Origin: Polyangiales bacterium
GTDB lineage: Bacteria > Myxococcota_A > Polyangia > Polyangiales > Ga0077539
Length of the DNA: 64,000 bases
Assembly (NCBI GenBank): GCA_044229975.1
Contig: JBGARZ010000002.1
Coordinates: 480,001 to 544,000 of the forward strand
Reading direction: 5' to 3'
Numbering within the stretch: the first letter of the stretch is position 1; each line of letters begins with the position of its first letter. Below, in pieces: positions 19,669-30,300 of the stretch. Position numbers and translations under genes: made by a program. Under the pieces are notes generated by a model. It was given only the letters and a program-made list of their open reading frames with translations, ran no database searches and was not told the DNA's origin.

Positions 19669-21071
19669 ACCGCAGCACCGCGACGCCCAGCAGCGCGCTC
19701 ACCGTCGACCCCACCAGCACGCCCACCTTCGCGCCGTCGGCGAGCGAGCGCTGCCCCGCAAACGCCAGCTCCCCGATGAAGAGCGACATCGTGAACCCGA
19801 TGCCCGCGAGCAACGACACGCCGAACACCTGACCCCACGACGCGTCCGTCGGGCGCGGGGCGAGCCCGGCGCGCACGGCGATCCAGGTGACGCCGAAGAC
19901 CCCCAGCGGCTTGCCCAGCACGAGGCCCAGCGCGGCACCGACCGCCGCGGGCGAGGCCATCGCGCCGCCGCCCGCGCCAACCACCCGCACCCCCGCGTTG
20001 ACCAGCGCAAACAGCGGAACGATCGCAAACGCCACCACGCCGTGGAGCACGACCAGCACCCGGTCGAGCGGCGACTGCATCTCCTCCAGGTGCCGCTCGA
20101 TGGAGGCCAGCACCCCGGAGTCGGGCGCGTCGGCGTCCTGGTGTTCGCGCAGCGAGTCGAGCGCCTCGTCGAGCTCGGCCAGCACTTCACCGACCGGCCG
20201 CGGCGCGCGCGCGGGAATCGCCAGCCCCAGCACCACGCCCGCCAGCGTCGAGTGCAGACCCGAGCGCAGCATCGCCACCCAGAGCGCGAAGCCCAGCGCG
20301 GCGTACGGCCACACCGTCCGAACGCCCGCGCGCCCGAGCCCGACGAGCGCGAGGGTGACCAGCACCGCGGCGCCGAGCCACGCCCACGCGATGCCGTGCC
20401 CGTAGAAGAGCCCGATCACCACGATGGCGCCGAGGTCGTCGAAGATCGCGAGCGACATCACGAAGACGAAGAGCGACGACGGTACCCGCGCGCGCATCAG
20501 CGACAGGCACCCCAGCGCGAAGGCGATGTCCGTCGCCATGGGGACGCCCCACCCGGCGCGGGCGGGCGTGCCCTCGGCCACGCCGACGTACGCGAGCGCG
20601 GGCACCACCATGCCCCCGAAGGCCGCGGCGAGCGGGAGCAGCGCGCGGCCCAGGGTGCGCAGCTCACCGCGCAGGAGCTCTCGCTTGATCTCCAGGCCCA
20701 CGACGAGGAAGAAGAGGGTCATCAGGCCCTCGTTGACCCAGTGCTGCACCGACCAGCGGAGCACGAAGCGGCCGACGCCGAGCGTCACCGGCGCGTGCAC
20801 CAGGTGGTCGAGCCCGGCGCTCCAGCGGGTGTTGGCCCACGCTACGGCCGTCACCGCCGCGGCGAGCAGCAGGAGCCCGCTCGCGGCCTCCAGTCGGAAG
20901 AAGGCCTGCAGTGGCCGCACGAGCGCAAACAGCACCCGCGGAACCGCCCTGCTCCCCTTCGTCGTGATCGCCGTCGCCATGGTCCGCCACAGTCCCTACC
21001 GCACGGCCGCGCGGTGTTCACCCCAGATCGGCCGCAGCGGGACGGCGGCGATGCTGATAGCTTCCGCCGCG

Positions 21072-21635
21072 ATGAGCGGCGTCGACGATCGCGCGATGGT
21101 GAAGGGCTTCGCGCTGCTCTCCTACCTCGACGCGCTGCGGGCGAGGCCCACGCTCGCAGGCCGCGTGATGCGCGAGCTCGAGGCGCGCCGCCCCGCGAGC
21201 CACCGCTTCTTCGCGGGCGAGGTCTACGCCAACCAGTGGTACCCGCGCTCGGAGATGCACGCGCTCTTCGACGCCCTCGCCGCGGTGGCGGGCGACGGCG
21301 ACGAGGAGTTTCGCGGCCTCGGCGCGCGGGCCGCGGAGTTTCAGATCGGCCGCATCTACCGGGTGTTTCTGGCCTTCGCGACGCCCGCGCTGGTCTTCCA
21401 GCGGGCCGAGTCCATCTGGGACAAGCAGAGCACAGGCGGGCGCTTTCGCGTGGTGCACGCCGCGGACGACCACCTCATCGGCGAGCTCGACGACCCGACG
21501 GCCCCCGTGAAGCTCCCCGTCGTGATGGCCGGCTGGAGCGATCGCGTCGTGATGATGCTACGCAGGCGCCCGACCCCGACGGAGGTCACCGCGCTCGGCG
21601 CCGGCCGCCACCGCTTCCGCGTCGCCTGGACGTAG
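21072..21635 (+). CDS. Myxobacterial hypothetical protein (DUF2378/H-NOX-like small family)
   Basis: The pattern VKGF...QWYP...LGARAAE...IYRVFL...TPALV...IW is typical of this myxobacterial family. Start uncertain (21072 or 21096). Confidence 0.6.
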   Translation: MSGVDDRAMVKGFALLSYLDALRARPTLAGRVMRELEARRPASHRFFAGEVYANQWYPRSEMHALFDALAAVAGDGDEEFRGLGARAAEFQIGRIYRVFLAFATPALVFQRAESIWDKQSTGGRFRVVHAADDHLIGELDDPTAPVKLPVVMAGWSDRVVMMLRRRPTPTEVTALGAGRHRFRVAWT

Positions 21636-21662
21636 ACCCTCCCTCCCCGATCACACCCTCCC

Positions 21663-22850
21663 ATGGCTGTCCCCGAATCCTTCTCCCCTCGCGCCGCGTG
21701 CGCGCGCTGCCTGCGACCGATCGCGCTGTGCTGGTGCGCCCACCTCACGCGCCTCGACACCCGCACCCGCGTGGTGCTGCTCCAGCACCCGCGCGAGCGC
21801 ACCGTCGCCATCGGCACCGCTCGCATGGCGAGCCTGTGCCTCCCCAACTCCGAGCTCCACGTCGGCGTCGAGTGGGACCAGTCCGCCGCCCTCGCCCGCG
21901 CGCTCTCCGACCCCGCCCGCCCCGCGGCACTACTGTACCCCGGCGAGGGTGCCGTCGACGTCGTCGCGCACCCGCCGTCGGGTCCCATCACGCTCGTCGT
22001 CGTCGATGGGACGTGGAGCCACACGCGCAAGCTCGTGCGCCTCAACCCCGCGCTCGCGGCGTTGCCGAGGTACTCGTTTACGCCGCCCGCGCCGAGCGAG
22101 TACCGCATCCGCCGCGAGCCGAAGGAGACCTTCGTGTCGACGCTCGAAGCGCTGGTGCATGTGCTCGGCGCCATCGAGGGGGAGCCCGAACGGTTCCGCG
22201 CGATGCTCGCCCCCTTCCGCGCGATGATCGACGCGCAGATCGCCTGCGAGGCCGAGCGACAGCACCACCGGGGGCGTGGTCCGCGACCGCCGAAGCCGCC
22301 GCGACCGCGGTTGCCGTCACCGCTCGCGGGGCGCGCGGCCGACGTGGTGTGCGTCATCGGCGAGGCCAACGCGTGGCCCCGCGGCGCCGACCGATCGCCC
22401 GCCCCCTTCGCGCAGGAGCTCGTGCAGTGGATCGCACACCGACCGGCGACGGGCGAGACCTTCGAGGCGATCGTCAGGCCGCAGCGCCCGGTGTCGCCCG
22501 CCATCGAGTCGCAGACGGGCCTTCGCGCCGACGAGGTGATGTCGGGCGAGAGCGTCGCGGAGGCGATGGCGCGTTGGCGCGAGTTCATCCGCGAGACCGA
22601 CCTCGTGTGCGCGTGGGGTGACTACGGGACGCAGCTCTTCGACGCCGTCGGCGGCTACATCCCCGGCGCGCTCATCGACCTGCGACGGCACGCGCGCATC
22701 GAGGCCAACGACAAGGTAGGCGGGCCGCTCGAATACCTCGCGAGCCTCGGTGGAGCGGAGGACGAGACGACGCCCGTCGGACGAGCGCGATCGGGAGTGC
22801 GACTGGGTCAGATCGTGGCGGTGGCACGCAGGCTCGCCGCGACGGGGTGA
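21663..22850 (+). CDS. tRNA-uridine aminocarboxypropyltransferase (DTW domain, TapT-like) fused to a degenerate DnaQ-like domain
   Basis: Zn-knuckle CARC...CWC; LLQHPRE, LLYPGEGA, VVDGTW, YRIRREP and STLEA; extra C-terminal ~170 aa. Confidence 0.85.
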   Translation: MAVPESFSPRAACARCLRPIALCWCAHLTRLDTRTRVVLLQHPRERTVAIGTARMASLCLPNSELHVGVEWDQSAALARALSDPARPAALLYPGEGAVDVVAHPPSGPITLVVVDGTWSHTRKLVRLNPALAALPRYSFTPPAPSEYRIRREPKETFVSTLEALVHVLGAIEGEPERFRAMLAPFRAMIDAQIACEAERQHHRGRGPRPPKPPRPRLPSPLAGRAADVVCVIGEANAWPRGADRSPAPFAQELVQWIAHRPATGETFEAIVRPQRPVSPAIESQTGLRADEVMSGESVAEAMARWREFIRETDLVCAWGDYGTQLFDAVGGYIPGALIDLRRHARIEANDKVGGPLEYLASLGGAEDETTPVGRARSGVRLGQIVAVARRLAATG

Positions 22851-22858
22851 TGGCGGGT

Positions 22859-22892
22859 CCGCCCGAAGGAGAGAGGTCCCTCCTCCGGGCGG
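22859..22892. terminator. GC-rich hairpin between the convergent DTW gene and tuf
   Basis: ccgcccgaaggag...ctcctccgggcgg. Fully paired with one G-U on the minus-strand transcript; no U tract. Confidence 0.5.
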
Positions 22893-22905
22893 TTCCCTGG
22901 TGGGG

Positions 22906-24081
<1,176 letters not shown>

Positions 24082-24146
24082 TGGATATTACCTCCTGTGC
24101 ATCGGACCAAATAGGCGTTGGTCCGAAGGTGTGATGCGCCAGAACG

Positions 24147-24185
24147 CGAAAACCCCCTCCTGCGGTGTCGCGGGAGGGGGTTTCG
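24147..24185 (-). terminator. Intrinsic terminator (attenuator) in the tuf leader
   Basis: Minus strand AAACCCCCUCC-CGCG-ACAC-CGCA-GGAGGGGG followed by UUUUCGCGUUCU, about 65 nt upstream of the tuf ATG. Confidence 0.85.
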
Positions 24186-24212
24186 ATGGAAGCGTCGGTA
24201 GCGGTTGTCGGC

Positions 24213-24317
24213 TTACCTGTGTGACGCTCGTTCGTGGCCCTCTCGCGCGCAGCGATCCGCTGACAGCGCTGAAGCGCTGGCTGAGCGGACTGATGCGTTG
24301 AGGGCTGAGAGGCGCAT
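24213..24317 (-). CDS. Putative 34-aa leader peptide MRLSALNASVRSASASALSADRCAREGHERASHR
   Basis: ATG at 24317, TAA at 24215-24213. Contains six TCA, two CGA and one AGG codons. Lies between the promoter and the terminator. Confidence 0.7.
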   Translation of the reverse strand: MRLSALNASVRSASASALSADRCAREGHERASHR

Positions 24318-24327
24318 TGCGGGTGCG

Positions 24328-24356
24328 ACCATGAACCCATGCCGAGAGAGTGTCAA
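24328..24356 (-). promoter_or_regulatory. Putative sigma70 promoter of the tuf leader
   Basis: TTGACA (24356-24351) - N17 - CATGGT (24333-24328). The predicted TSS is only a few nt before the uORF ATG. Confidence 0.6.
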
Positions 24357-25942
24357 GAACCCTCTGCAACAAGCGTCGTCGCCGCCGTCACCCCCGCTCG
24401 GACGGCCGCCTCGGTGCTCGGCGTCGGTTGCGACGACTTCACCCAGTCACCGGCGAAGAGGAGGTTGTCGTATCCCGATACACGCGCGCCCAACCGATAC
24501 TTCCAGTGCCCTGGCTCGGCGAGCAGGTATCGCATGTGGTGCGCCGTGTTGCGGCGAAACTCCCAGCGGTGTCCGTCCTCGCGCGCGAAGACCTTGGCGG
24601 CGTCGAAGCGCGTGCCATCAACGAACGGAAGACCGCCAAGGTTCTTCAACATCCGCCGCACGAGCTCGTTGTCGGTGAGCTCGCCGTCGAGGCCCTCCTG
24701 GCCGAGCATCTCCACCACGCTGCCTCGCCCCGGTCGCAGCGCGGCGACCCGGTTGGCGTAGTCGATCACCGTCGCCGCGGGCTGCGGCGTGCCCAGCACC
24801 ACCGTGTCGTAGTCCGACGGAAACACCCGCTCCGACAGCCACGCGCGCAGGCTGATGGACGCCACCGTCCGCAGCTTCCACAGCCCGCGCAGCTCGCGGT
24901 GGTCGAGCACCGACGCGTCGAAGTCCGGCGTCGTCCGCAGGAGCGCGCGCAGGCTGTCCACGGGCAGCGCGGAGATGACCACGTCGAAGTCCTCGCCGAC
25001 CTTCAGCACGCGCTCGACGCTGCCCGCGGGCGGCGCCGGGTCGCCCTTCGGATACGGCGCCTCGGCCAGCGGGTCGCCACCCTCGAAGGGCTCGACGCGC
25101 ACGTGCTCGAAGACGCCGCTGATGGGGACGGCGTTCGCCATGGAGCGCAGCACCACCTCGCGGACCCGCTGCCCCTTCGGGTCGAGCGTGAGGCGCGTCG
25201 CCTTCGTACAGAACTCGATGGTGCCGCCCGACTCACGGAAGGCGCGGGCGATGGGTTCGATGAGCACCTCGCCCACCGGACCATTGAAGTAGAGAACGGT
25301 CGGCTTCTTGAAACCGGCCATGTCGCGAAAGCCCTTCACGCCGACGTACGCTGACCCCTCGCTGGGATAGTTGTAGGTCAGGTCGAACAGGTACCTGAAC
25401 CACGGGAGTCGGGTGAGGTCAGCGTCGAGCCCGTGCGCCACACACCAGGGCGTGAAGCCGTCCTCGTCCATCGACGGCGGTGGATCGCCCTTCCAGAACT
25501 CCACCGCCATCCGCGCGAAGAAGAGCCCGAGCCGAAGTTTCTGCGAGGGGTTCATCCCGCGGTAGGTGAAGAAGTCGGACTCCAGCAGCGCACGCACGTC
25601 GAGCGGCCCCGACGGTAGGCGCAGCGTGTTGACCGCGTTGGCGCCCGAGTCGTAGATGCGATGAACGCCACCGTTGTCGGTAAACCACCGTTCATCGGAC
25701 ACCGAGCGGCCGCAGCGCGCGAGGAGCTTCGGCACCGCCGTGTAATATCCGAAGAGGGAGTGAAACCCCGTCTCCATGTAGCGCCCGTCGGGCAGGCGCC
25801 AGCTCGCGGCCTTGCCTCCGAGTCGGCCCTCCATGCAGACCAGCGTCACGTCGTAGCGCTCGCGCGCCTGGTCGAGAATCTCCAGACCCGCCGCGAGGCC
25901 CGCGAGGCCCCCGCCCAGGATCAACACCCGCTTCTTGGTCAC
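24353..25942 (-). CDS. FAD-dependent oxidoreductase, phytoene desaturase/HpnE-like flavin amine-oxidase family
   Basis: GTG start VTKKRVLILGGGLAGL; LGGKAASW...ETGFHSLFGYY; NLLFAGDWV...STEAAVRAG. Confidence 0.85.
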   Translation of the reverse strand: MTKKRVLILGGGLAGLAAGLEILDQARERYDVTLVCMEGRLGGKAASWRLPDGRYMETGFHSLFGYYTAVPKLLARCGRSVSDERWFTDNGGVHRIYDSGANAVNTLRLPSGPLDVRALLESDFFTYRGMNPSQKLRLGLFFARMAVEFWKGDPPPSMDEDGFTPWCVAHGLDADLTRLPWFRYLFDLTYNYPSEGSAYVGVKGFRDMAGFKKPTVLYFNGPVGEVLIEPIARAFRESGGTIEFCTKATRLTLDPKGQRVREVVLRSMANAVPISGVFEHVRVEPFEGGDPLAEAPYPKGDPAPPAGSVERVLKVGEDFDVVISALPVDSLRALLRTTPDFDASVLDHRELRGLWKLRTVASISLRAWLSERVFPSDYDTVVLGTPQPAATVIDYANRVAALRPGRGSVVEMLGQEGLDGELTDNELVRRMLKNLGGLPFVDGTRFDAAKVFAREDGHRWEFRRNTAHHMRYLLAEPGHWKYRLGARVSGYDNLLFAGDWVKSSQPTPSTEAAVRAGVTAATTLVAEGS

Positions 25943-25952
25943 GCCGTCACCC

Positions 25953-27380
25953 TCAGATCTTCTTGAGCACCACGTCGCGCCGCGCCTCGCCACGGAGCGT
26001 TCCGTCGACGCTGGTCGCGATCACCCGCGCCCGCAGCCGCTCGCCCCGGGGCATCGCCCCTTCGTCCACCACCATCACGCTCACGTCGAGCCCGTCGCGG
26101 CGCATCAGCACCTCGCCCGACTGCCGCTCCAACAGAAACCGGTACCGCAGCGGCACCTGCGGATCTCGCCGCTTCACCCTCCACGAAAACACCGCCAGCC
26201 CCACGTCGTTTCGGCTCACGTCCATGGTGAGCTTCGGGTCGTCGTATCGCTTGATGAGCTCGGCGAAGGCCACTCCCTTCACGGCCTTCCCCCGACACAA
26301 TCCGCTCACCCGACACGAGCCCTCCCAGAACGACCCCGCGCGATTGACCACTCCCCCGGTGAGCGCCGCCGCCAACGCGACCCACGGTCGGCCGTCGTCG
26401 TCGACGATGGGTGTGAGCTGGTCGTGGTGGCGCGGCGTGATCTCCAGGTCGGTGTCCCACTCCGCGGCCCGAAAGCGCCAGCCCGCCGAGTACACGGCGC
26501 CCTGTTTGGGCGAGCGCCAGAAGCGCGTGCGGGTGAAGTCGTGGTTGCCGATGATGCGCTTGAACTCACCATCGGCCGTGATGAGCCCGGCGCCCCCGAA
26601 GGCTTCCACGGAGGGGGAGGTCTCATCGGGGTTCCAGACCGTGGTGAGCATGATCTCGTCCCGCGAGTCGAGCTGGATGCTCATCCACTCGTACTCTTCC
26701 AACATGCGATTGCGGAACGGGGTGACGAAGAAATCTCCCCATTGGTGATCGAACCAACCGATACCCGCCACGGAGACCGTCTCGGCGCCGAGGCGCAGCG
26801 TACCCTTTGCCGCCAGGCGGGTCAGTGAGTAGTAGGAGAACCACCCGCTATCGGCGAAGGGCAGATATCCGATACCGCCTGCCTCGTAGGGGACCTTTTC
26901 GTTCTTGAGGTTGAGCTCGACCGCGAACTTCCCTGCGTCGTCGATGGCGCTCAGCTTCGACGAGAAGTCGGTGTCCACCGAGACCCAGCGGTCTTCCCCG
27001 CCGGGGTGCTTGAAGAGCGTGTCGAGGCGCCCCGACGCGGCGCGCAGCGTCCCCAGCGTGGTGCCCGTCCAGGCGCCCAGGTAGCGGTCTTCGCTGTCCC
27101 AGGCCCGCACCACGAGGAAGCGCAGGTGCTGGGTGAAGTACGCGGCGAAGACCACAAAGGTCCTCCCCTGGCCGCCCTTCTCCTCCTCAACATGGGCGTT
27201 GAGGTAGATCCACTCCATGTGACAAGGGCCGGGCGACGTGATCGATCGCTCTGCGGACCCTGAAATCCCCAACCGGTGATGCCAGCCCTCGTCGAGGGGA
27301 AAGGTCAGCGCGCTGCTCTTGCGGTGATACGGCTTGTTCCGCCAGGGCGCGTCGGGCACCACGGGTCCGTCGCCGGGCAT
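25953..27380 (-). CDS. AttH/CrtC-like (lipocalin-like) protein with an extra C-terminal domain
   Basis: Motifs FPLDEGWH, EWIYLNAH, SYYSLTRL, GIGWFDHQWG, EWMSIQLD and FWEGSC. Start overlaps the xdh stop (TGATG). Confidence 0.8.
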   Translation of the reverse strand: MPGDGPVVPDAPWRNKPYHRKSSALTFPLDEGWHHRLGISGSAERSITSPGPCHMEWIYLNAHVEEEKGGQGRTFVVFAAYFTQHLRFLVVRAWDSEDRYLGAWTGTTLGTLRAASGRLDTLFKHPGGEDRWVSVDTDFSSKLSAIDDAGKFAVELNLKNEKVPYEAGGIGYLPFADSGWFSYYSLTRLAAKGTLRLGAETVSVAGIGWFDHQWGDFFVTPFRNRMLEEYEWMSIQLDSRDEIMLTTVWNPDETSPSVEAFGGAGLITADGEFKRIIGNHDFTRTRFWRSPKQGAVYSAGWRFRAAEWDTDLEITPRHHDQLTPIVDDDGRPWVALAAALTGGVVNRAGSFWEGSCRVSGLCRGKAVKGVAFAELIKRYDDPKLTMDVSRNDVGLAVFSWRVKRRDPQVPLRYRFLLERQSGEVLMRRDGLDVSVMVVDEGAMPRGERLRARVIATSVDGTLRGEARRDVVLKKI

Positions 27381-30300
27381 CAGACCGACGCCGCGCGAAT
27401 CGCCGTCAGGATGGCCTCGTGCGTCGCGGGAGACGCGAGCGGCACCACGCCGGGCTTCGTCGCGAAGGCCGCCACCGCCTCGCGAATCGCCTCGCGCGCG
27501 CTGATCGCCAGCATCAAGGGCGGCTCGCCCACGGCCTTGCTGCCGTGCACCGTGTTGGACTGCGCCGCGTCGGGCAGCAGGGCGACCCGGAAGTCCCTCG
27601 GCGCGTCGCTGAACGCGGGGATCTGATAGGTGCTCGCCGAGTGCGTGAGGAGGCGCCCCTTGGCGTCCCAGAGGAGTTCTTCGCCGGTGAGCCAGCCGAC
27701 ACCCTGGACGTAGCCGCCTTCCACCTGTCCGCGGTCGACGCCGGGGTTCAGCGAGTCGCCGACATCGTGGAGGATGTCCGTCCGCAGGATGCGCTTCATC
27801 CCGGTATAACCGTCGACCTCGACCTCGGTGACGGCCGCGCCGAAGGCGAAGTAGTGGAAGGGCTTTCCCCGACCCGCGGCCTTGTCGTAATGGACGCCGG
27901 GCGTTCGGTAGAAGCCCGTCGCCGACATCGGGGTCTGCTTGAGGTACGCGCACTCGGTCAGCTTGTGGTCAATGGCCTGCGATCGCCCATTGGCCACAAA
28001 CGCCTGGCCGTCCCATTGCACATCGTCGAGCGGCGCTTCGAGGAGGTACGCCGCGATGGGTCGCAGCCGGTCGCGCAGCGTCAGGCACGCGTCGCGCACC
28101 GCCGCGCCGTTGAGGTCTGCGCCCGCGCTCGCCGCCGTCGCCGACGTGTTGGGAACCTTGTCCGTCGCGGTCTTCATCACGCGGACGTGGTCGCGGTCGA
28201 GACCCAGCTCGCGCATCGCGATACCAAGGATCTTGGTGTTGAGCCCCTGGCCCATCTCGGTTCCGCCGTGGTTCACCTGGAGCGAGCCGTCACGGTAGAG
28301 GTGCAGGAGCGCGCCCGCCTGGTTGAGGAACGTCGCCGTAAACGAGATGCCGAACTTCACCGGGGTGATGGCGATGCCCCGCTTGATGCGGGCGCTCTGT
28401 CCGTTGAAGCGAGCGACCTCCGCGCGGCGGGCGACGAAGTCCGATGACGCCATGACGCCCGACCAGATGCGGTCGAGGCGATTGTCTTCAATCAACTCGC
28501 CGTAGTGGGTGGTGTTGGACTCGCCCTCACCGCGGTAGAGGTTGCGCTCGCGCACCGCGTGCGCTTCGAGTCCGAGCGTGCGCGCGACGCGGTCGACGAT
28601 GTCCTCCATCACCACCATGCCCTGCGGGCCGCCGAAGCCGCGGAAGGCCGTGTGCGAGCAGACGTTGGTCTTCGCCACGCGGCCGAAGAAGTCGACCGCG
28701 GGGATGTAGTAGGCGTTGTCGAGGTGGAAGAGCGCGCGGTCGCAGATGGACTCCGACAGGTCCAACGCCCAGCCGCCGTCGGCGGTGAGGTCGACCTTCG
28801 CGGCGAGGAGCGTTCCGTCGTCGTCGAAGCCGACTTCCCAGGTCGCGAAGAAGGGGTGCCGCTTGCCTGTGAGCGCGAGGTCGAGGTCGCGCTCAACCTG
28901 CACCCTGACGGCGCGACCCGTCTTCATCGCCGCGAGCGCGACGAGCGCCGCCCAGGTGTTGCCCTGGGTCTCCTTGCCACCGAATCCGCCGCCCATGCGC
29001 GGGGCCTGCACGACGACCTTGTTTCGCGGGAGGTGCAGCACGTGCGAGACGACCGCCTGCACCTCGGACGGGTGCTGCGTCGACGAGCGAACCACCACGT
29101 CGCCGTCGTCGCCGGGCTCGGCCGACGCGGCGTGCGTCTCCAGATAGAAGTGCTCCTGACCGCCGATGTGCATGGTTCCGCGGAGGCGGTGCGGGGCACG
29201 GGAGAGGGCGTCGGTGACGTCGCCGCGCGCGATGCGATGACCGTTGGTGTGGAAGCTGTCGGCCGCGATGGCGGCCTCGGCGCCGAGGACGATGGGCAGC
29301 GGCTCGTACTCGACGACGACCGCGGCGGCGGCGCGGCGGGCGAGGGTCTCGTCGTCGGCGATGACAACCGCGACGAGGTGCCCGTGGAAGCAGACCTCGG
29401 TGGCCGCGAGCAGGGTCTCGTCCTGGCGCACGGCGCCGACGTCGTTGGCGCCGGGGATGTCCTCGGCGAGCAGCACCGCCACGACCCCGGGCATGGCGCG
29501 GGCGGCCGTCGCGTCGCGGCGAAGGATGCGGGCGTGGGCGTGCGGCGACGTGACGGGCCAGAGCGTGAGCATGTCCTGGCGCTGGGCGTCGTCGTCGACG
29601 TAGCGGGCGACGCCGGTAGCGTGACCGAGGCCGCTCTCGTGGCGCAGCGCGCGGGAGGCGTCGTCGGTCTCGTCGGCGGGCGTGGGGACGTAGTCGAGGG
29701 GAAGGTCCTGCGAGAGCGATCGATCGCCGGAGACGAACTTCTCGAAGAGATTGGGGATGAGCTGACGACGGTAGTCGGCGCCGCCGCGCGCGTCGGTGAT
29801 GGGCGTGAACTCGTCGGCCAGCATCGGGAGCAGGTCGCGAATACCATCGACGGTAAACGGCCGACCGATGAGCGCTGCCTCGGTGCGCTTCGCGCGGACC
29901 GGCGTGGCCGCGACACCGCCGAAGGCGAGGCGGGCGTGGGTGATGATGTTGCTGGCGTCGACGTCGACGACGAAGGCACCTGCGACGATGGAGATGTCCA
30001 TCTCGCGGCGCTTACTGACCTTGAAGCTGTCGGTGTGGCGGTACGGCAGCTCGGGGATCGGATCGAGCGGGACCGCCACCGAGACCATCACCTCGTCGCG
30101 CTCCATCGCGGTCTTGCGGTAGCCAAGGAAGAAGTCTGCGAGCGGCACGGCGCGCCGTCCGCGCACGGAGGCGAGCTCCACGGTCGCGTCGTGGGCCATC
30201 AACACCGGCGCGAGATCGCCGATGGGCGACGCCGTCACAAGGTTGCCCGCCAGGGTCGCGCGGTTGCGGATCTGCCGCGACGCGAACACCGCCAGCATCT

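Follow-up and report, generated by a model that had tools for sequence, protein, structure and literature searches.

A candidate ribosome-mediated attenuator with rare serine codons ahead of a divergent EF-Tu gene in a Polyangiales bacterium

A divergent EF-Tu gene and its leader

The window described here is a stretch of 64,000 nucleotides from a Polyangiales bacterium (assembly GCA_044229975.1, contig JBGARZ010000002.1, positions 480,001 to 544,000), and the element of interest within it is a minus-strand leader followed by a gene for a second, divergent EF-Tu, hereafter the spare EF-Tu. Between an amine-oxidase gene and the start of this tuf gene lie a promoter-like site, a short upstream open reading frame (uORF) rich in TCA serine codons, and a predicted intrinsic terminator (Table 1). 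We regard it as reasonably likely that the leader lets transcription into the spare EF-Tu gene only if a ribosome lingers on the UCA codons of the uORF. The original prediction had placed a promoter, a uORF, a hairpin, an antiterminator and a terminator at this locus, and each of them was recovered at its position.

The spare EF-Tu carries the Pfam domains GTP_EFTU, D2 and D3 (E = 3e-57, 1e-15 and 3e-25) and is 54% identical to the EF-Tu of the str operon, whose gene adjoins that for EF-G on contig C28. Orthologues with 74-85% identity are present in 6 of the 30 other genomes of the family, and at E <= 1e-140 in 53 of the 401 genomes sampled from the order (34 of 136 genera). Relatives in Pendulispora, Polyangiaceae, Labilithrix and Archangium are annotated merely as 'elongation factor Tu'; among them, those of Pendulispora brunnea and Archangium violaceum share 81% and 71% identity. 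In a quick maximum-likelihood tree, one branch with a Shimodaira-Hasegawa-like approximate likelihood-ratio (SH-aLRT) support of 100 separates the 53 paralogues from 23 canonical EF-Tu sequences, the latter all from one family. The paralogues themselves split into a clade of 23 that includes the window's copy (support 90), a clade of 26 (support 99) and four sequences apart. The neighbouring genes vary between orthologous loci, and in the window the gene is monocistronic, with a hairpin past its stop codon and a convergent neighbour. Because the neighbours vary from locus to locus, leader and gene are shown to form a self-contained cassette.

Table 1. Features of the leader, the spare EF-Tu gene and its convergent neighbour, with positions in the window
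Feature	Position	Strand	Basis and remarks
-35 hexamer TTGACA	24356-24351	-	Sequence; overlaps the TGA stop (24355-24353) of the upstream amine-oxidase gene
-10-like hexamer CATGGT	24333-24328	-	Sequence; 17-nt spacer from the -35 hexamer, 10 nt to the uORF ATG
uORF, 34 codons and TAA, product MRLSALNASVRSASASALSADRCAREGHERASHR	24317-24213	-	Sequence; ATG at 24317
Region 1, GCCCUC (codons 5-6), basal 5' strand of the long uORF hairpin	24300-24305	-	Minimum-free-energy (MFE) fold
Upper uORF hairpin, GUCCGCU..CAGCGC-UUCA-GCGCUG..AGCGGAU (codons 10-21)	24255-24290	-	Sequence and MFE fold
Region 2, CGCGAGAGGGC (codons 24-28), 3' strand of the hairpin base and predicted antiterminator	24237-24247	-	Sequence
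Spacer hairpin around the uORF stop codon	24189-24233	-	MFE fold
Predicted intrinsic terminator, stem CCCCCUCC/GGAGGGGG with inner GCG/CGC, then UUUUCGCGUU	24143-24183	-	Fold
Hairpin UUCGGACCAA-CGCCUAU-UUGGUCCGA, past the terminator and ahead of the tuf ribosome-binding site	24102-24127	-	Fold
Shine-Dalgarno sequence GGAGG of the EF-Tu gene	24091-24095	-	Sequence
Divergent EF-Tu gene, 391 aa, monocistronic	22906-24081	-	Pfam
Hairpin directly past the tuf stop codon	22859-22892	-	Sequence; faces the convergent DTW-domain gene
DTW-domain gene converging on the spare tuf	21663-22850	+	Domain match, E = 2e-46

Conservation of the leader with the gene

The order of parts is kept upstream of the orthologues: a TTGAC element, a uORF of about 15-40 codons (mostly starting MR), a terminator hairpin of the form CCCCUCCGG..GAGGGG with a UUUUCGCAUUU-like tail, and the ribosome-binding site of tuf. 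A covariance model, R1, built from nine of these leaders gave full-length matches ahead of the gene in about 30 loci, with uORF ATG positions that agree with the hand picks described below, and one true match in the window's 10-Mb genome. At E <= 0.001 it matched 7 of the 31 family genomes, in six of them directly upstream of the gene. As seven family genomes carry the gene, the model found the leader in six of the seven and missed it in G004. The remaining match, in G012, one of the 24 genomes that lack the gene, was rejected, because it consists of an unrelated helix-turn-helix gene's 3' end together with its terminator. No match was obtained in the 23 canonical tuf loci (88 kb in total). 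Across these comparisons of sequence, the leader is shown to be conserved with the spare EF-Tu gene and apparently with no other. An aligned set of upstream regions, one of the checks proposed at the outset, likewise revealed a conserved uORF and covarying stems in the orthologues, so that an equivalent leader is present there.

The spacing of the parts is informative. In six loci (L044, L048, L049, L052, L042 and L045) a mere 21-45 nt separate the end of the terminator from the tuf ATG, so that tuf can hardly own a promoter there and its expression would need read-through of the terminator. The uORF stop always precedes the terminator hairpin, the gap being about 15-50 nt overall, mostly 23-41 nt, and 32 nt in the window, which puts the hairpin out of reach of a terminating ribosome.

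A promoter-like arrangement precedes the uORF in most orthologues. Read by eye, roughly two thirds of 30 orthologous leaders have TTGAC 36-44 nt ahead of the uORF start, and it is followed by hexamers (CATGGT, TACGGT, CATAGT, CATATT, CAAGGT) that retain A2 and T6 of a -10 element. A simple consensus scan flagged neither this promoter in the window, the -10 element of which agrees with TATAAT at 3 of 6 positions, nor the terminator, which has four T in its 8-base tail. The distance from the -10-like hexamer to the uORF ATG is 8-12 nt in orthologues and holds no Shine-Dalgarno sequence, and the ATG keeps a fixed distance to the promoter throughout. This geometry predicts that the leader mRNA would be leaderless or nearly so.

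The terminated fold

Covariation was assessed on an alignment of 66 matches that were fitted to the model and include short reverse-strand terminator matches, a procedure that leans towards the structure. The terminated fold accounted for 91.9% paired cells, as against 70.9% in shuffles (none of 500 reached the observed value) and 49-55% with slid partners, and 34 of its 36 pairs showed changes on both sides. At the foot of the uORF hairpin, helices 1-2 were 90-92% paired, through GC, CG, UA, AU and UG types. In the MFE fold of the window this basal pairing consists of GCCCUC of region 1 and its partner GAGGGC at 24242-24237, and relatives have GCGCUC/GAGCGC, UCGCUC/GAGCGA, GCGUCC/GGACGC, GCAUCC/GGAUGC, UCGGAC/GUCCGG, CUCCAC/GUGGAG and others at this place. 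All 12 pairs of the upper uORF hairpin (helices 3-5) have changed on both sides in orthologues, as have 4 of 4 in the homologue of the spacer hairpin (helix 6, 80.6% paired). The terminator helix is 95.6% paired, and its lower stem covaries. The terminator was detected automatically in 25 of the 30 leaders, and in L009, L012, L037, L055 and L058 the homologous hairpin was set by hand.

Folding independent of the alignment gave a similar picture. Taken alone, nearly all of the uORFs fold into a single long hairpin with imperfections; z averages -2.35, is negative in 29 of 30 and lies under -2 in 17 of 30. In the window, the 249-nt leader folds at -109.3 kcal/mol, lower than each of 200 shuffles, which gave -81.6 +/- 4.2 kcal/mol (z = -6.6), and the terminator stem CCCCCTCC/GGAGGGGG at 24180-24153 has a folding energy of -22.2 kcal/mol, with the U-tract TTTTCGCGTT next to it. 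An Rfam search of 20000-28000 returned no family match except a chance-level asX4 elsewhere (E = 0.81). Both the extent of the covariation and the z-scores obtained without an alignment speak for a real terminated fold. Its upper uORF hairpin may serve as a pause hairpin.

Two further features were noticed around the terminator. The tail UUUUCGCAUUU is unusually conserved for a terminator tail, and RNAalifold pairs the uORF start AUGCG (24313-24317) with CGCGU/CGCAU (24144-24148) on the 3' side of the terminator U-tract, a pairing that could exist in read-through transcripts only. Further downstream, a hairpin with differing letters stands at the place of 24102-24127 in L007, L008, L035-L038 and L041 as well; in relatives this hairpin ahead of the Shine-Dalgarno sequence reads UCGGGYC..GCCCGA and lies 6-15 nt ahead of it. 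It may stabilise the RNA or offer a further point of control.

The uORF read as codons

The uORF in the window contains six TCA codons (codons 4, 9, 12, 16, 19 and 32), two CGA codons and one AGG codon, and ends in TAA. TCA makes up 6 of its 34 codons and 6 of its 7 serine codons, in a genome where it occurs at 1.9 per 1000 codons and represents 3.15% of serine codons (ACA, which matters below, occurs at 1.4 per 1000). Among 24,644 short ATG-initiated open reading frames lying mostly outside a rough coding mask, this uORF has the highest TCA count (6; next best 5). The same genome scan for TCA-rich short frames yielded no second convincing leader; it is noisy, as off-frame ORFs inside genes are TCA-rich.

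For the orthologous loci, one uORF per locus was picked by hand for 45 of the 53 loci, from a list that displayed TCA counts. L051, L054 and L059, which are preceded by tRNA genes or lack an upstream ORF, were left out, as were L065, L066, L067, L074 and L080 for want of a nameable uORF. The codon groups were set by the tree and not by codon. In the window's clade (23 leaders, 718 codons), TCA occurs 69 times in frame, 3 times in the +1 frame and not at all in the +2 frame. In the other group, which consists of the 26-member clade and L061 (22 leaders, 735 codons), it is ACA that is enriched, with 37 occurrences in frame, 3 in +1 and 1 in +2, and TCA counts are 9, 11 and 3. These leaders are related and include near-copies (L008/L009, L055/L058, L069/L071 and L072/L078/L079), and the counts are not independent events. 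TCA amounts to 69 of 137 serine codons in the window's clade versus about 3% genome-wide, and 81% of the rare TCA and 89% of the rare ACA codons fall within the first 60% of the uORF. The leader peptides of the 23 leaders are 19% serine, with runs of four to six serine codons in L035, L046, L052 and L070. The codons that would be sensed are avoided in the controlled gene, as shown by the 53 genes, which together hold 2 TCA and 10 ACA in 20,712 codons; the gene in the window has neither (G+C content at third codon positions, 0.96). Codon-level selection on a uORF that is apparently read as codons is supported by these comparisons.

The peptides encoded by the leaders share a C-terminal motif, A/T-D-x-C-A-R-E-G (codons 19-27; 24237-24262, minus strand). 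The strand that encodes it is the partner of region 1 and the predicted partner of the terminator arm, and constraints on RNA and on peptide are inseparable here. Elsewhere in the window's genome, a locus at G000:C32:448592-449441 (L081) has a tRNA-Cys gene followed by all four tRNA-Ser isoacceptors (UGA, CGA, GCU and GGA) in a row. About 270 nt upstream of these tRNAs lies a 42-codon ORF with 15 serine codons of five of the six kinds, and then a hairpin. The idea that this is a second serine leader was dropped as unsupported, the ORF being absent from the other family genomes in a DNA search.

The predicted antiterminator

The 3' strand of the uORF hairpin is predicted to double as an antiterminator. 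In the window, 9 of the 10 positions of CGCGAGAGGG (24247-24238) are complementary to CCCTCCCGCG (24178-24169) in the 5' arm of the terminator, and the best duplex between region 2 and this arm reaches -15.8 kcal/mol, compared with -9.4 +/- 2.0 kcal/mol for shuffles (p = 0.013).

To model the response to a ribosome, the nascent transcript was taken as far as the terminator loop and 27 nt of it were masked as the ribosome, with the pairing probability of the core of the terminator 5' arm as readout. With the A site at codon 8, the probability was 0.76 in real leaders and 0.46 in shuffled uORFs. The corresponding values were 0.42 and 0.47 with the ribosome at the stop codon, and 0.43 and 0.48 with no ribosome. 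In 29 of 30 cases the early position gave a higher value than the stop position, and the partner of the arm lay late in the uORF, mostly at codons 23-28. An A site on TCA or ACA gave 0.67, compared with 0.55 on other codons and 0.42 at the stop; among 29 leaders, it ranked above other codons in 24 and above the stop in 26. The antiterminator and the direction of the switch thus rest on modelling and are put forward as such.

Residues of the spare EF-Tu and its surroundings

Aligned to a solved gamma-proteobacterial EF-Tu, the spare copy scores 487 bits and the housekeeping copy 654 bits. The spare EF-Tu keeps the P-loop, DCPGH and NKTD (NKxD), and it retains H66, E215, D216, F218, T228 and N273, which form the aminoacyl pocket (E. 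coli numbering). In the same numbering, it has histidine at Y160 and the changes E259Q, R262H and R333G. Q, H and G are found at positions 259, 262 and 333 in 90%, 94% and 100% of 49 paralogues, and E, R and R in the 23 canonical sequences. R333 is presumably a position of pulvomycin resistance, and E259 and R262 presumably line the pocket for the tRNA 3' end, the site of GE2270A. Both inhibitors are described in PMC4307249 as preventing aminoacyl-tRNA from binding to EF-Tu. The pattern of changes fits an inhibitor-insensitive replacement.

The housekeeping EF-Tu of the family has a peculiarity of its own. In L002:1477-2673 (contig C28) and in 22 family genomes, its switch I loop is four residues longer (YKDIAKGGIDRDATKTVTI); the spare EF-Tu retains the widespread form of switch I. 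Short EF-Tu matches at two contig ends may point to a second housekeeping copy. The paralogues L051, L054, L059 and L061 form a separate small clade, in which L051 and L054 have tRNA genes directly upstream in place of the leader, resembling a tRNA-tufB operon, and L051 has the family's unusual switch I loop.

The DTW domain encoded next to the spare EF-Tu gene belongs to a family tied to tRNA modification; this neighbourhood is not kept in other loci. Neighbours related to RNA or translation also occur at L008:2649-3902, L009:2724-4163, L035:3-1508 and L044:886-1491, and they are of the RNB-domain exoribonuclease, RtcR-type sigma-54 activator and YqeY-like types, none of them conserved across loci. 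Self-resistance within a biosynthetic gene cluster was rejected as a role for the spare EF-Tu, the neighbours being unrelated and changing from locus to locus.

A possible mechanism and what it may sense

The layout of a ribosome-mediated attenuator, which the original prediction had recognised in the window alone, is borne out by the orthologues, as uORF, control codons, 1:2 helix and terminator are conserved with the gene. In the mechanism favoured here, the mRNA would start at the AUG or a few bases before it, and a 70S ribosome would load once the 5' end emerges. The uORF would form one long hairpin, with the rare codons in its 5' strand and CGCGAGAGGGC, complementary to the 5' arm of the terminator, in its 3' strand. 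When decoding is fast, the ribosome would run beyond region 2 to the stop codon, the hairpin would re-form behind it, the terminator would fold and transcription would end at about 24149. A ribosome waiting at a UCA codon in the 5' strand would instead leave the 3' strand free, and the free strand would pair with the terminator arm before the partner of that arm has been made, so that RNA polymerase would read into tuf.

The quantity sensed would be how well Ser-tRNA(UGA)-EF-Tu-GTP is supplied at a rare codon, or its threonine counterpart at the ACA codon in the sister clade, and upon failure of the housekeeping factor or of its substrates the spare EF-Tu would restore aminoacyl-tRNA delivery. 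The signal may be slow decoding, starvation for serine or threonine, or inhibition of EF-Tu. We infer that the leader is a gauge of decoding capacity and not of one amino acid, because serine and threonine codons serve the same gene in two clades, and because a rare A-ending codon is preferred to common synonyms and the controlled gene avoids such codons. Slow decoding of UCA or ACA could equally arise from a shortage of Ser- or Thr-tRNA.

A more specific version is an inducible target-replacement module, in which the uORF would sense the supply of ternary complex, fire upon a block of the housekeeping EF-Tu by inhibitors of the pulvomycin or thiopeptide type, such as soil competitors produce, and induce an EF-Tu with a remodelled drug site (E259Q, R262H and R333G), the UCA and ACA codons being swapped between clades with the logic kept. 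We hold this version tentatively and regard it as less likely than not. If true, it would be the first resistance switch that senses the activity of a translation factor and not the occupancy of the ribosome by a drug.

A number of results weigh against the proposed switch. Some concern the uORFs themselves. No leader ORF can be named for 8 of the 53 loci, the uORFs were picked by hand from a list showing TCA counts, and the kinship of the leaders means that the counts overstate their independence. One TCA lies beyond region 2, at codon 32 in the window and at codon 28 in L007-L010; a ribosome stalled so late would be expected to promote termination. The rarer codons TTA, ATA and AAA are not used in the uORFs, which argues for some specificity for serine and threonine or for NCA codons. 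The genome has two gene copies of tRNA-Ser(UGA), and slow decoding of UCA is thus assumed, and the serine-rich runs in many leaders resemble those of classical starvation leaders.

Other unfavourable results concern the RNA switch. A register-free duplex test gave a mean z of -1.05, with p <= 0.05 in only 9 of 30 leaders, and the antiterminator columns in the window's register were paired at 57.1% versus 57.0% in shuffles, a lack of signal that is explained by the terminator arm, which hardly varies. In equilibrium folding with a sliding ribosome mask, the terminator was dominant whatever the position of the ribosome in most leaders, including that of the window, and the model therefore depends on kinetics. 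The original proposal that a stalled ribosome throws the switch accordingly divides: the nascent model agrees with it (early versus stop position), but covariation is silent and equilibrium favours the terminator. The suggested folding with and without a ribosome mask divides in the same way, with a response in the nascent model and none at equilibrium. Finally, a search for RNA runs returned metagenomes only, and four RNA runs matched only conserved parts of tuf, at 90-95% likeness and from other organisms, with nothing at 24111-24500, a result that bears neither way on the leader.

Alternative explanations

The closest alternative retains the attenuator and makes it specific for an amino acid. 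The leader would be a sensor of serine starvation, or of threonine starvation in the sister clade, and the spare EF-Tu a starvation-phase factor like tuf3 of Streptomyces. The his, leu, thr and phe leaders are classical starvation attenuators of this kind, and the serine content and serine runs of the leader peptides given above parallel them. However, the controlled gene is unrelated to the supply of serine or threonine, no conserved neighbour has such a role, and one gene family is preceded by serine codons in one clade and by threonine codons in the other. Moreover, it is the rare A-ending codon that has been selected, as half of the serine codons are TCA, and not serine in general. Starvation sensing is considered unlikely. 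A signal in the peptide itself, namely a drug-dependent nascent-peptide arrest of the erm or cat type acting through the C-terminal motif, appears very improbable. The motif recurs in L001, L007-L010, L035 and L037, and uORFs that sense ribosome-targeting drugs are known, according to PMC12121999. Yet the motif is encoded by region 2, which covaries with region 1, and AREG gives way to ARGG, ARAG, CPEE and VCRE in relatives; a ribosome held there would cover region 2, for which the model gives termination; and the frame-specific signal is a rare codon, not a peptide.

The remaining alternatives dispense with ribosome-controlled termination altogether. The hairpin might simply terminate the upstream gene or a small transcript, with tuf transcribed from a promoter of its own, and its position 170 nt past the amine-oxidase stop and 71 nt ahead of the tuf ATG would allow this. 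We give such an absence of regulation very little credence, as the upstream genes vary between loci while promoter, uORF and terminator are constant, six loci leave only 21-45 nt between terminator and tuf ATG, and within the genome the leader model has no match away from this locus; the consensus scan that missed the leader promoter returned no promoter-like site for 22500-26500. Strong covarying structure is also what would be expected if the uORF were untranslated and the leader were a structured RNA that binds a protein or ligand. This is scarcely credible in view of the frame-specific codon counts (69:3:0 and 37:3:1), the ATG that is fixed relative to the promoter, the stop codon that always precedes the terminator, and the lack of an Rfam match.

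Relation to known systems

The leader shares with the trp, his, leu, thr and pheST leaders of enterobacteria a short ORF, clustered control codons, a 1:2 helix and a 3:4 terminator hairpin, with a 2:3 antiterminator predicted here, and like the leu leader it would sense through a rare synonymous codon (CUA in leu). Unlike in these amino-acid attenuators, the gene controlled here encodes an EF-Tu paralogue and not an enzyme that makes or charges the sensed amino acid, a leaderless uORF is predicted, the codon is UCA or ACA depending on the clade, and the host is a myxobacterium. The vmlR, bmrCD and erm leaders resemble the proposed switch in that stalling on a uORF relieves the premature termination of a translation-stress gene. 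The same likeness holds for toiL of E. coli, as described in PMC12121999; in all four of these systems the stalled ribosomes are drug-bound, often on a specific peptide, whereas a rare codon would be decisive here. According to a report on mycobacteria (bioRxiv 10.1101/834739), leaderless polycysteine short ORFs at the 5' end attenuate through the codons of one amino acid, as the uORF here, predicted to be leaderless, would do, although those ORFs precede cysteine-related operons and the present one a translation factor, with a rare synonymous codon.

A second set of parallels concerns the gene. Streptomyces is a genus with spare EF-Tu copies of its own, and its EF-Tu3 is reportedly resistant to three classes of EF-Tu inhibitors. 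EF-Tu3 and actEF-Tu2 resemble the spare EF-Tu in being second copies far from the housekeeping one, sporadic and, as predicted for the latter, conditionally expressed, and tuf3 is described as starvation-induced, both according to PMC4342817. According to PMC7157823, tuf3 also belongs to the WblC/WhiB7 regulon of translation stress. The likeness there would be a divergent and dispensable EF-Tu that is induced by translation stress together with other spare translation factors; the difference is that a transcription factor acts at the tuf3 promoter, and a cis-acting uORF and terminator would act here.

The original prediction knew of no description of such a system in myxobacteria, and the literature search agrees with it, as no account of a leader of an EF-Tu gene or of the myxobacterial paralogue was found in sources outside subscription journals, which the search did not reach. 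While attenuation is textbook knowledge for amino-acid operons, a rare-codon gauge placed on a spare EF-Tu was not found in the literature searched.

Implications

If the mechanism holds, the cell would gauge its own decoding capacity and respond by changing the factor that delivers aminoacyl-tRNA. The role of divergent EF-Tu paralogues is a question that dates from Streptomyces tuf3, and the cassette, with about 270 nt of leader and one gene, would offer a compact system in which to approach it. The exchange of UCA for ACA with the fold kept amounts to a natural experiment in the evolution of a sensor. Under the same condition, the leader would also be a natural reporter for EF-Tu-targeting antibiotics or for tRNA stress in myxobacteria.

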